Assembly (NCBI RefSeq): GCF_055900595.2 | Contig: NZ_CM148325.1 | Reading direction: 5' to 3' (one strand) | Length of the DNA stretch: 64,000 nucleotides | Part shown: positions 23,860 to 64,000 of the stretch, one piece after another | Layout of the letters: each line of letters starts with the position of its first letter | Position numbering within the stretch: the stretch's first letter is position 1 | Notes under the pieces: model-generated | Told to the model about the DNA's origin: nothing | Database searches by the model: none | The model's input: only the letters and a program-made list of their open reading frames with translations | Program-made: the position numbers and the translations under genes

Positions 23860-24843
23860 GTGTTAAAAAAATATCTTCCCCTGCTGTTGCTCTGTACAGC
23901 ACCCGCTTTCGCTAAACCCGTTCTGACTGTTTATACCTACGATTCCTTCGCCGCCGACTGGGGGCCAGGTCCGGTGGTGAAAAAAGCCTTTGAAGCCGAC
24001 TGTAATTGCGAACTGAAACTGGTGGCGCTGGAAGATGGCGTTTCGCTTCTCAACCGTCTGCGGATGGAAGGCAAAAACAGTAAAGCCGATGTGGTGCTGG
24101 GGCTGGATAACAATCTGTTAGATGCCGCCAGCAAAACCGGGCTGTTTGCTAAAAGCGGTGTGGCAGCGGATGCCGTTAACGTTCCCGGCGGCTGGAATAA
24201 TGACACTTTCGTCCCGTTTGATTACGGCTATTTCGCCTTCGTCTATGACAAGAACAAACTGAAAAATCCGCCGCAAAGCCTGAAAGAATTGGTTGAAAGC
24301 GATCAAAACTGGCGGGTGATTTATCAGGATCCGCGTACCAGTACGCCGGGCCTGGGCCTGTTGTTGTGGATGCAAAAAGTCTATGGCGATGACGCCCCAC
24401 AAGCCTGGCAGAAGCTGGCGAAGAAAACGGTCACGGTCACCAAAGGCTGGAGCGAAGCCTACGGCCTGTTTTTAAAAGGCGAAAGCGATCTGGTACTGAG
24501 TTACACCACCTCTCCGGCTTATCACATTCTCGAAGAGAAGAAAGATAACTACGCCGCCGCGAACTTCAGCGAAGGTCACTATTTGCAAGTGGAAGTCGCC
24601 GCCCGCACCGCTGCCAGCAAACAGCCGGAGCTGGCGCAAAAATTCCTCCAGTTTATGGTTTCTCCGGCTTTTCAGAATGCGATCCCAACCGGCAACTGGA
24701 TGTATCCGGTGGCAAACGTCACGCTGCCTGCCGGTTTTGAAAAATTGACCAAACCGGCAACCACGCTGGAGTTCACGCCAGCCGAGGTGGCGGCACAACG
24801 TCAGGCATGGATTAGCGAATGGCAACGCGCCGTCAGCCGTTAA
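23860..24843 (+). CDS. thiB: ThiB (TbpA), thiamine/TPP periplasmic binding protein
   Basis: ORF track starts at an upstream TTG; GTG at 23860 preceded by GAGG gives MLKKYLPLLLLCTAPAFAKPVLTVYTYDSF... with a signal peptide, 327 aa. Confidence 0.92.
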   Translation: MLKKYLPLLLLCTAPAFAKPVLTVYTYDSFAADWGPGPVVKKAFEADCNCELKLVALEDGVSLLNRLRMEGKNSKADVVLGLDNNLLDAASKTGLFAKSGVAADAVNVPGGWNNDTFVPFDYGYFAFVYDKNKLKNPPQSLKELVESDQNWRVIYQDPRTSTPGLGLLLWMQKVYGDDAPQAWQKLAKKTVTVTKGWSEAYGLFLKGESDLVLSYTTSPAYHILEEKKDNYAAANFSEGHYLQVEVAARTAASKQPELAQKFLQFMVSPAFQNAIPTGNWMYPVANVTLPAGFEKLTKPATTLEFTPAEVAAQRQAWISEWQRAVSR

Positions 24844-32618: not shown

Positions 32619-33314
32619 ATGTTAGAAGATCTCAAACGTCAGGTTTTAGAAGCCAACCTGGCGCTGCCAAAACACAACCTGGTCACGCTGACCTGGGGCA
32701 ATGTCAGCGCCGTTGATCGCGAGCGCGGCGTCTTTGTAATCAAACCTTCCGGCGTCGATTACAGCATCATGACCGCTGACGATATGGTCGTGGTCAGCAT
32801 CGAAACCGGTGAAGTGGTAGAAGGTACGAAAAAGCCCTCCTCCGACACGCCAACTCACCGACTGCTCTATCAGGCATTCCCGTCCATTGGCGGCATTGTG
32901 CATACACACTCGCGCCACGCCACCATCTGGGCGCAGGCGGGTCAGTCAATCCCGGCAACCGGCACCACCCACGCCGACTATTTCTACGGCTCCATTCCCT
33001 GTACCCGTAAAATGACCGACGCAGAAATCAACGGCGAATATGAGTGGGAAACCGGTAACGTCATCGTTGAAACTTTCGAAAAACAGGGTATCGACGCAGC
33101 GCAAATGCCTGGCGTGCTGGTCCATTCTCACGGCCCGTTTGCATGGGGTAAAAACGCCGAAGACGCAGTGCATAACGCCATCGTGCTGGAAGAAGTCGCT
33201 TATATGGGGATTTTCTGCCGCCAGTTAGCCCCGCAATTGCCAGATATGCAGCAAACATTGCTGGATAAACACTATCTGCGTAAGCATGGTGCGAAGGCAT
33301 ATTACGGGCAGTAA
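32619..33314 (+). CDS. araD: AraD, L-ribulose-5-phosphate 4-epimerase
   Basis: 231 aa [51 protein letters not shown]... Confidence 0.97.
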
Positions 33315-33317
33315 TGA

Positions 33318-33333
33318 CTGTATAAAACCACAG
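33318..33333 (+). promoter_or_regulatory. LexA (SOS) box upstream of polB
   Basis: CTGTATAAAACCACAG matches the LexA consensus CTGT-N8-ACAG; polB/dinA is a known SOS gene. Confidence 0.8.
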
Positions 33334-33345
33334 CCAATCAAACGA

Positions 33346-33376
33346 AACCAGGCTATAATCAAGCCTGGTTTTTTGA
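33346..33376 (+). terminator. Intrinsic terminator-like hairpin (araD terminator) in the polB leader
   Basis: AACCAGGCT-ATAATCA-AGCCTGGTT followed by TTTTTT, lying between the LexA box and the polB GTG start. Confidence 0.65.
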
Positions 33377-33388
33377 TGGAATTTCAGC

Positions 33389-35740
33389 GTGGCGCAGGCA
33401 GGTTTTATCTTAACCCGACACTGGCGGGACACCCCGCAAGGGACAGAGGTCTCCTTCTGGCTGGCGACGGACAACGGGCCGTTGCAGGTTACGCTTGCAC
33501 CGCAAGAGTCCGTGGCGTTTATTCCCGCCAATCAGGTTCCCCGCGCCCAGCATATTTTGCAGGGTGAACAAGGCTTTCGCCTGACGCCGCTGGCGTTAAA
33601 GGATTTTCACCGCCAGCCGGTGTATGGCCTTTACTGTCGCGCCCATCGCCAGTTGATGAATTACGAAAAGCGCCTGCGTGAAGGTGGCGTTACCGTCTAC
33701 GAGGCCGATGTGCGCCCGCCAGAACGCTATCTGATGGAGCGGTTTATCACCTCTCCGGTGTGGGTCGAGGGTGATATGCGCAATGGCGCTATCGTTAATG
33801 CCCGTCTGAAACCGCATCCCGACTACCGCCCGCCGCTCAAGTGGGTTTCTATTGATATTGAAACCACCCGCCACGGTGAACTGTACTGCATCGGTCTGGA
33901 AGGCTGCGGGCAGCGCATCGTTTATATGCTGGGGCCGGAGAATGGCGATGCCTCCGCGCTTGATTTCGAACTGGAGTACGTCGCCAGTCGTCCGCAGCTG
34001 CTGGAAAAACTCAACGCCTGGTTTGCAACTCATGATCCCGATGTGATCATCGGCTGGAACGTGGTGCAGTTCGATCTGCGAATGCTGCAAAAACATGCCG
34101 AGCGCTACCGTATTCCACTGCGTCTGGGGCGCGATAACAGTGAGCTGGAGTGGCGCGAGCACGGCTTTAAAAACGGCGTCTTTTTTGCCCAGGCCAAAGG
34201 TCGGCTAATTATCGACGGTATTGAGGCGCTGAAATCTGCATTCTGGAATTTCTCTTCATTCTCGCTGGAAACCGTCGCTCAGGAGTTATTAGGCGAAGGA
34301 AAATCTATCGATAACCCGTGGGATCGGATGGACGAAATTGACCGCCGTTTCGCCGAAGATAAACCTGCGCTGGCAACTTATAACCTGAAAGATTGCGAAC
34401 TGGTGACGCAGATCTTCCACAAAACTGAAATCATGCCGTTTTTACTCGAACGAGCGACGGTTAACGGCCTGCCGGTAGATCGGCACGGGGGGTCGGTGGC
34501 AGCGTTTGGTCATCTCTATTTTCCGCGAATGCATCGCGCTGGTTATGTCGCGCCTAATCTCGGCGAAGTGCCGCCGCACGCCAGCCCTGGCGGCTATGTG
34601 ATGGATTCGCGGCCTGGGCTTTATGATTCGGTACTGGTGCTGGACTACAAAAGCCTGTACCCCTCGATCATCCGCACCTATCTGATTGATCCCGTCGGGC
34701 TGGTGGAAGGCATGGCGCAGCCTGATCCAGAGCACAGCACCGAAGGCTTTCTCGATGCCTGGTTCTCGCGGGAGAAACATTGCCTGCCGGAGATTGTGAC
34801 TAACATCTGGCACGGGCGCGATGAAGCCAAACGCCAGGGCAATAAACCGCTGTCGCAGGCGCTGAAGATCATTATGAATGCCTTTTATGGCGTGCTTGGC
34901 ACCACCGCCTGCCGCTTCTTCGATCCGCGCCTGGCGTCGTCGATCACCATGCGTGGTCATCAGATCATGCGGCAAACCAAAGCGTTGATTGAAGCGCAGG
35001 GCTACGACGTGATCTACGGCGATACCGACTCAACGTTTGTCTGGCTGAAAGGCGCACATTCGGAAGAAGAAGCGGCGAAAATCGGTCGTGCACTGGTGCA
35101 GCACGTTAACGCCTGGTGGGCAGAAACATTGCAACAGCAACGGCTGACTAGCGCATTAGAACTGGAGTATGAAACCCATTTCTGCCGTTTTCTGATGCCA
35201 ACCATTCGCGGAGCCGATACCGGCAGTAAAAAACGGTATGCCGGGCTGATTCAGGAGGGCGATAAGCAGCGGATGGTGTTTAAAGGGCTGGAAACCGTGC
35301 GCACCGACTGGACACCGCTGGCCCAGCAGTTTCAGCAGGAGCTATACCTACGTATCTTCCGCAACGAGCCATATCAGGAATACGTTCGCGAAACCATCGA
35401 CAAACTGATGGCTGGCGAACTGGATGCACGGCTGGTTTACCGTAAACGCCTTCGCCGTCCACTGAGCGAATACCAGCGTAATGTGCCGCCTCATGTACGC
35501 GCCGCTCGCCTTGCCGATGAAGAAAACCAAAAGCGCGGTCGCCCCTTGCAATATCAGAACCGCGGCACCATTAAGTACGTCTGGACCACCAACGGCCCGG
35601 AGCCGCTGGACTACCAACGTTCACCACTGGATTACGAACACTATCTGACCCGCCAGTTGCAACCGGTGGCGGAGGGAATACTCCCTTTTATTGAGGATAA
35701 TTTTGCTACACTTATGACCGGGCAACTTGGGCTATTTTGA
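33389..35740 (+). CDS. polB: PolB, DNA polymerase II (B family)
   Basis: 783-codon ORF starting at GTG ([34 protein letters not shown]...); 3'-5' exonuclease and polymerase motifs (YGDTDS) present. Confidence 0.96.
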
Positions 35741-63670: not shown

Positions 63671-64000
63671 TTAACGACGCATACTCTTCGACAACATCAT
63701 TTGCCACTTCTGCTCGCGGTTAAGTTCCGTGAGTGGAACGGCAGGAATACGCGGCGTCTTTCTGACACCGACGACTTTTTCCCGACTGTTATTGCGCAGG
63801 CGCGCGTAAATTTGCTCATCGATATCGACCACTTTAACCAGCCGCTGGCACTGGCATCCCCGCCCTTCCAGCTTATTAGGGATCATCTTAACTTCGCAGC
63901 TTATTTCTGTGACTTCCGACAGAATATAAGTCAGGGTATTAACCGCCTTGCTGTGTTCAATATCGAAATGAATAGAGATCTCTCTTGCTATCACCCACCG
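63671..64000 (-). CDS. caiF: CaiF, transcriptional activator of cai/fix operons; 5' end (N-terminus) runs off the window end
   Basis: ORF MIAREISIHFDIEHSKAVNTLTYILSEVTEISCEVKMIPNKLEGRGCQCQRLVKVVDIDEQIYARL...SMRR matches the C-terminal ~107 residues of the 131-aa CaiF as I recall it. Confidence 0.88.
   Translation of the reverse strand, partial: RWVIAREISIHFDIEHSKAVNTLTYILSEVTEISCEVKMIPNKLEGRGCQCQRLVKVVDIDEQIYARLRNNSREKVVGVRKTPRIPAVPLTELNREQKWQMMLSKSMRR

Follow-up and report, generated by a model that had tools for sequence, protein, structure and literature searches.

The araBAD terminator and the LexA-controlled polB promoter probably overlap in the araD-polB spacer of Escherichia coli

RESULTS

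Organization of the araD-polB spacer

The window, that is, the whole stretch of DNA that was analyzed, comprises 64,000 nucleotides of Escherichia coli sequence (NCBI RefSeq assembly GCF_055900595.2, contig NZ_CM148325.1), and positions are counted from its first letter. The spacer of interest measures 74 bp (33315-33388) and separates two genes carried by the plus strand. Upstream lies araD, the last gene of araBAD, which encodes L-ribulose-5-phosphate 4-epimerase (32619-33314, with the TAA stop codon at 33312-33314). Downstream lies polB, encoding DNA polymerase II (33389-35740, 783 aa), which starts with a GTG codon at 33389. Both coding sequences were delimited with the list of open reading frames (ORFs), and the gene identities are those of the RefSeq annotation of identical E. 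coli genomes, plus K-12. The K-12 coordinate of a window position p is 99169 - p.

The initial annotation of this DNA had listed, in this order, the araD stop codon, a LexA box, a GC-rich hairpin followed by six T residues, and the polB GTG. All these elements are present in that order, and their positions were accurate to within 1-2 nt. The hairpin with its T-tract is real, but it spans 33345-33374 and not 33346-33376. Except for the LexA box, to which no strand was assigned, the spacer elements described below were read on the plus strand.

Each hairpin arm contains a Dcm site, CCAGG at 33348-33352 (-18 to -14 relative to the polB transcription start site, TSS) and CCTGG at 33364-33368 (-2 to +3, spanning the TSS). 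The polB GTG is preceded, at a distance of 13 nt, by an out-of-frame ATG (33376). The reading frame from this ATG has about 64 codons, extends to 33567 and overlaps the polB start; the ATG lies within the plus-strand ORF 33286-33567. A leader ORF starting at this ATG was considered and rejected, as the ATG is found in 48 of 80 species, with ORF lengths from 0 to about 130 codons, and is thus not conserved.

The LexA box

The LexA (SOS) box CTGTATAAAACCACAG occupies 33318-33333, exactly where the initial annotation had placed it, and corresponds to positions -48 to -33 from the mapped polB TSS (see below). It is an imperfect CTG-N10-CAG palindrome with an AT-rich center, and its region matches the consensus TACTGTATATATATACAGTA at 14 of 20 positions (manual count). 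Presumably, it ranks among the weaker functional boxes. The pattern CTGT-N8-ACAG alone has three matches in the 64-kb window, against 0.68 expected. The other two exact matches (23884-23899 and 63907-63922) have GC-rich spacers and, for this reason and given the expected number per window, are probably due to chance. The copy next to polB is validated by its context and its conservation, since a box of this form lies at the same distance from polB in 80/80 species. The literature agrees with this assignment, polB being listed among the E. coli genes with a known SOS box (PMC6590174) and among the Salmonella SOS loci common to E. coli (PMC8072944).

The candidate polB -35 element, CAGCCA (33331-33336, placed from the positions of the -10 element and the TSS), shares its first three bases with the CAG of the LexA box, which overlaps the upstream contact region as well. 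The arrangement is that of other SOS promoters with a LexA box over the -35, with the same operator overlap and a fixed distance between operator and -10. Because the CTG-N10-CAG operator overlaps polymerase recognition elements, repression by occlusion would be expected. What distinguishes polB from other SOS promoters is that its promoter shares DNA with a terminator.

A hairpin with intrinsic terminator geometry follows araD

The hairpin is built from a 5' arm, AAACCAGGCT (33345-33354), the loop ATAATCA (33355-33361) and a 3' arm, AGCCTGGTTT (33362-33371). Its 10-bp stem combines a 7-bp GC-rich core with three A-U pairs, the loop has 7 nt, and the T6 tract (33369-33374) provides the U6 tail. 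The segment has a folding energy of -15.7 kcal/mol. Folding of the RNA 33335-33390 confirmed the strong hairpin that had been announced, with -19.4 kcal/mol and z = -4.5, none of 200 shuffled sequences being as stable. The 3' end of araD (33295-33376), which contains the hairpin, folds at -25.1 kcal/mol (z = -4.3).

A GC-rich stem, a short loop and a U-tract directly after it make up the geometry of an intrinsic terminator. In addition, the hairpin begins about 31 nt past the araD stop codon, after the final gene of a co-directional unit. An araBAD rho-independent terminator was reportedly described together with the araBAD sequence by Lee et al. in 1986, and the hairpin found here, with its GC-rich stem and U6 at that distance from araD, shows no structural difference from the known one. 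A simple terminator scan made no plus-strand call at the hairpin, only because three of the Ts pair within the stem. An Rfam scan of 32900-33900 returned no known RNA family.

In the Term-seq data of Adams et al. (2021), obtained from cells grown without arabinose, there was no 3' end in araD or in the intergenic region, and only one internal to polB. As araBAD is off without arabinose, termination at the hairpin therefore stays something that we infer despite the missing 3' end. The same observation is what would be seen if the palindrome were kept mainly as polB promoter DNA, in the role of spacer, discriminator and initial transcribed sequence, or as a site for an unrecognized factor or for Dcm, araBAD termination being incidental or minor. 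The presence of a Dcm site in both arms, CCAGG and CCTGG, also speaks for this alternative, and the textbook combination of stem, loop and U6 speaks against it. The comparison between species described below bears on it more directly.

The polB promoter lies in the hairpin and transcription starts in its 3' arm

A perfect TATAAT hexamer, overlooked in the initial annotation, is found at 33354-33359, where it comprises the last base of the 5' stem and part of the loop. Just before it come G-15, G-14 and C-13, all in the 5' arm, which would thus double as polB promoter DNA from -21 to -12. Upstream, with a 17-bp spacer to the hexamer, CAGCCA matches the TTGACA consensus at three of six positions and falls short of a -35 element. 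The polB promoter was not called in a consensus sigma-70 promoter scan, because the -35 is too poor. As far as the sequence goes, these features are compatible with a promoter of the -10-driven or sigma-S-assisted type (C-13, G-14). Together, the hexamer and the 17-bp spacer place the expected start near 33366, within the 3' arm.

This prediction could be compared with the TSS tables of Kim et al. (2012, PLoS Genet; PMC3415461), who enriched 5'-triphosphate RNA with terminator exonuclease, applied a modified 5'-RACE and kept the reads present in both replicates. The K-12 polB TSS was placed at NC_000913 65803 (minus strand), with a 5' UTR of 23 nt and the upstream sequence GACTGTATAAAACCACAGCCAATCAAACGAAACCAGGCTATACTCAAGCCT. 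This TSS corresponds to window position 33366, in the 3' arm at 7 nt past the hexamer, and gives a 5' UTR at 33366-33388. In the same study, the polB TSS of Klebsiella pneumoniae was mapped at 69499 (minus strand) with a 24-nt UTR; it lies 8 nt after the Klebsiella TATAAT, inside the 3' arm of that species' own hairpin, and is equivalent to window position 33367. The two starts (33366-33367) are mutually consistent and match the prediction from the sequence, and in both the -10 hexamer precedes the TSS by the usual 6-8 nt. Few reads supported them, 2 for E. coli and 4 for Klebsiella, as expected for a LexA-repressed promoter in the uninduced cells that were used.

The position of the TSS bears directly on the nature of the polB leader. 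The 23-nt leader holds only the UGG and the U-tract of the hairpin, the latter as bases +4 to +9. Transcription starts in the 3' arm, so that polB mRNA contains neither the 5' arm nor the loop and cannot form the hairpin. In line with this, the mRNA counted from the TSS (33366-33425) folds at -12.4 kcal/mol with z = +0.10, so no unusual structure was detected. The initial annotation had placed the hairpin in the polB leader and had concluded that the polB transcript must read through a terminator if the SOS promoter overlaps the LexA box. Neither statement is supported, as the -10 is in the loop, the TSS was mapped to the 3' arm in K-12 and Klebsiella, and the leader starting at 33366 lacks the 5' arm. 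A polB start mapped beyond the hairpin had been named there as the observation that would speak against read-through, and a start past the 5' arm and the loop is essentially this observation.

We have nevertheless weighed whether the SOS promoter could fire upstream of the hairpin, so that polB would depend on read-through of an attenuator. Three features lend themselves to this reading: the TATAAA at 33321-33326 within the LexA box resembles a -10 element, no more than 14 nt separate a strong terminator hairpin from the polB GTG, and Kim et al. assigned to polB a second TSS inside araD (K-12 65946, equal to window 33223; 166-nt UTR, 2 reads), whose transcripts must pass the hairpin. Against it, the polB-proximal TSS falls in the 3' arm in two species, and the stretch from the LexA box to the hairpin has no reported TSS. 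Moreover, the invariant element located 20 bp from the LexA box is the TATAAT of the loop, and no antiterminator pairing stands out, nor does the region match an Rfam leader family. Among the hallmarks of an attenuator, the polB leader presents an incomplete hairpin, and we found in it no sensing element, no special structure and no conserved leader ORF. The putative -10 of the TSS at 33223 reads GATTTT in the window and GATATT in K-12.

Other sources on polB expression were consulted. A passage of a review (PMC6590174) that cites Dapa et al. 2017 gives RpoS as required for full polB expression, and such a requirement fits the C-13/TATACT-type -10 of polB, as judged from the motif. The supplements of the SMRT-Cappable-seq, ROSE and iModulon studies contained no mention of polB or araD, and a literature text search on the polB promoter and the polB-araBAD terminator returned only off-topic matches (human POLB, polymyxin B).

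At the other end of polB, the TSS table of PMC3415461 contains a 21-read hepA/rapA start at K-12 63588 (window about 35581), inside the polB 3' end and with a 324-nt UTR, and a further hepA/rapA TSS closer to hepA, with a 93-nt UTR. With a start inside polB, rapA promoters would be embedded in the polB gene.

A common polymorphism in the -10 hexamer

The polB (dinA) promoter of K-12 is the same locus, and its LexA box, both stems, T-tract and GTG are identical to those of the window. The K-12 spacer differs at two bases, one in the leader (33381) and one in the loop (33358, K-12 65811), where TATACT replaces the TATAAT found here. Position 33358 is thus an A/C polymorphism at -8, the A allele giving the perfect consensus hexamer. 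In a set of 5,426 complete E. coli genomes, the 62-bp allele of the window was matched by 1,973 and that of K-12 by 2,622 at an identity of at least 99%, so that both are common. Across Enterobacteriaceae, TATAAT is the majority state (69 of 80 species). As the polymorphic base lies in the loop, it should alter promoter strength or sigma preference and leave the terminator untouched.

When the 701-bp segment 33000-33700 was compared with complete E. coli genomes, only 8 of 5,400 matching genomes reached at least 99% identity, and most fell between 95 and 99%. The window would therefore come from a relatively uncommon E. coli lineage.

Promoter and terminator halves are conserved differently among Enterobacteriaceae

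We have compared the polB loci of 80 Enterobacteriaceae species, anchored on the -10 hexamer. A LexA box of the form CTGT-N8-NCAG precedes polB in 80/80 species, as does TATA[AC]T, and the gap between the two is exactly 20 bp in 78/80. The box columns -48 to -44 and -35 to -33 are 92-100% conserved. The same range applies to almost every position of the block AACCAGG(C/T)TATAAT (-20 to -7), the exceptions being -8 (about 87%) and -13, which is conserved at 96% where araD is adjacent and at 71% where it is far or absent. The intervening stretch from -32 to -21 varies freely, and the candidate -35 elements are uniformly poor (CAGCAT, CAGCAA and others). The GTG start codon and a leader of 22-26 nt are likewise found in 80/80 species. 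The GGA at 33378-33380, which the initial annotation had proposed as a weak Shine-Dalgarno sequence, is present, with an SD-like purine triplet in 80/80 species, and we grade it as modest.

The loci were then divided according to the position of araD. It is adjacent to polB in 56 species, with a spacer of up to about 230 bp that sometimes includes REP-like repeats. The other 24 loci form a heterogeneous class in which araD is either 0.3-1.1 kb away or, in four loci, undetected, two of these four (L015 and L041) ending at a contig edge, so that araD could still adjoin polB there. The sequence AACCAGGYTATAAT and the LexA box are near-invariant with or without an adjacent araD. The 3' arm and T-tract behave differently, with a conservation of 95-100% in the adjacent class (n = 56) versus 54-88% in the far/absent class (n = 24). 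They are kept in 55 of the 56 araD-adjacent species, the exception being Pluralibacter gergoviae (L071), which has araD adjacent and no hairpin, and are decayed in about half of the far/absent class. At least six of the seven core stem pairs are retained in 54/56 adjacent versus 10/24 far/absent loci. The mean hairpin energy is -14.1 kcal/mol (n = 56) versus -8.5 kcal/mol (n = 24), a difference with a Mann-Whitney p of 2e-5 that ignores phylogeny, the losses representing roughly 5-6 lineages and not 13 independent events.

This pattern favors the alternative that the initial annotation had mentioned last, namely, that the hairpin mainly terminates araBAD. Together with the canonical geometry, it makes the araBAD terminator the most likely role of the araD-polB hairpin. 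Retention of the 3' arm and T-tract where araD adjoins polB, and their free loss where it does not, with polB and the promoter half persisting, both argue against a palindrome kept mainly for the promoter. The finding in favor of that view is that AACCAGG (33346-33352, -20 to -14) stays 92-100% conserved even where the partner arm has decayed. We know of no promoter role for AACC at -20 to -17; G-15, G-14 and C-13 have plausible ones. polB can do without the 3' arm and T-tract, as the lineages devoid of them retain the gene, its LexA box and its -10, which also indicates that the hairpin is not needed for polB regulation, contrary to what an attenuator would imply. Read from this conservation, the LexA box, 5' arm and -10 belong to polB; maintenance of the 3' arm and T-tract goes with an adjoining araBAD. 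A covariation test of the stem in the 80 species was uninformative, the pairs hardly varying on both sides; there is essentially no covariation to score because the 5' arm, which doubles as promoter, is nearly invariant.

In Salmonella and in a Citrobacter clade, an opposite-strand ORF of 130-163 aa, convergent with araD, adjoins this gene. There, the 3' arm has drifted differently by species, and the 5' arm and -10 are intact. About 1 kb separates araD from polB in such loci (L008, positions 419-1500, from Salmonella enterica subsp. diarizonae, and L009-L011, L017, L019, L020 and L024), the stop codon of the opposite-strand ORF in L008-type inserts lying about 6 nt from that of araD and being followed by an AT-rich non-coding stretch. 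A simple scan of the L008-type loci revealed no canonical plus-strand replacement terminator after Salmonella araD, a result that would suit araBAD termination being of minor weight.

We have also considered whether the hairpin is kept whenever the upstream neighbor is co-directional, whichever gene this is. The outcome was mixed and does not support the rule as formulated: L018, L023, L067 and L026 fit, and in L028, L034, L040, L044, L039, L051 and L053 the neighbor is co-directional but the hairpin is absent. In seven loci from several genera (L018, L023, L067, L039, L051, L053 and L028), the DNA separating araD from the LexA box of polB contains an inserted co-directional ORF of about 205-216 aa. 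This ORF encodes an N-terminal membrane helix and the motif DQTRKADCAIVAGAGI; in L028 it overlaps the start of the LexA box, and in the others its end lies between a few nt and about 37 nt before the box.

DISCUSSION

Our results are best explained by a terminator/promoter overlap, in which the araBAD terminator and the polB promoter share DNA and LexA controls polB. We assign this reading a probability of roughly 0.85. It corresponds to two elements of E. coli that are already known, the polB/dinA SOS promoter and the araBAD terminator.

According to the overlap reading, two overlapping signals in the 74-bp spacer would act on different transcripts. A polymerase coming from araBAD would transcribe AAACCAGGCU-AUAAUCA-AGCCUGGUUUUUU, and the RNA would fold into an intrinsic terminator. 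Termination at this point would insulate polB from a strongly arabinose-induced operon. A polymerase recruited for polB would bind the same DNA, melt it at the TATAAT of the loop and start at 33366/33367 in the 3' arm. The resulting mRNA would begin with UGGUUUUUUGAUGGA and, having no 5' arm, would form no terminator. From its position at -48 to -33, we infer that LexA would cover the weak -35 and the upstream contacts and so block polymerase recruitment, and during the SOS response, RecA-stimulated LexA cleavage would lift the repression.

The initial annotation had suggested attenuation or a low basal expression by design. Low basal output retains its place in the overlap reading, whereas attenuation is not needed: LexA repression, the poor -35, the GTG start codon and the modest Shine-Dalgarno sequence would account for it.

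An addition to the overlap reading would be an effect of araBAD transcription on polB, either through read-through that raises polB expression or through polymerase traffic across -48 to +8 that displaces LexA or occludes the promoter. Every araBAD polymerase crosses the LexA box and the polB -35 and -10 before terminating, which it would do on the polB start site itself, and intrinsic terminators are in general rarely 100% efficient. Furthermore, polB is said to be listed as arabinose-responsive in the arabinose transcriptomics of Stringer et al. from 2014. On the other hand, no arabinose effect on polB was found in the expression datasets examined, and with a hairpin this strong (10 bp, U6), leakage is likely small. 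We therefore regard such an effect as possible but doubtful. There is a rather slim chance that the overlap makes Pol II expression respond to arabinose catabolism, whether by leakage at the terminator, by removal of LexA or by occlusion of the promoter, or, as a separate matter, that the AACC(AGG) at -20 to -14 is a site for an unrecognized regulator or promoter element.

That the palindrome is maintained mainly as promoter DNA or as a factor or Dcm site is very unlikely in view of the retention pattern described above. The attenuator has a precedent in E. coli, where an overlap of the frd terminator with the ampC attenuator was reportedly described by Grundstrom and Jaurin in 1982, the terminator of the upstream operon serving as leader attenuator. 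The two loci are alike in that the terminator of an upstream co-directional operon precedes the next start codon in a very short spacer. In ampC, the promoter precedes the hairpin, and the mRNA therefore carries the terminator and is attenuated; polB, unlike ampC, has its -10 in the loop and its TSS in the 3' arm, and its mRNA escapes the terminator. An attenuated polB is thus barely credible.

The overlap has little importance beyond annotation hygiene, in that an apparent leader terminator of an SOS gene turns out to be, most probably, a terminator/promoter overlap. Attenuator scans will produce similar false positives unless the loop is inspected for a -10 or TSS data are checked. Within E. 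coli, the common TATAAT/TATACT polymorphism could contribute to strain differences in the basal level of Pol II. In the Enterobacteriaceae, a single palindrome would carry two functions under separable selection, its promoter half being invariant and its terminator half being kept only where araBAD adjoins polB.
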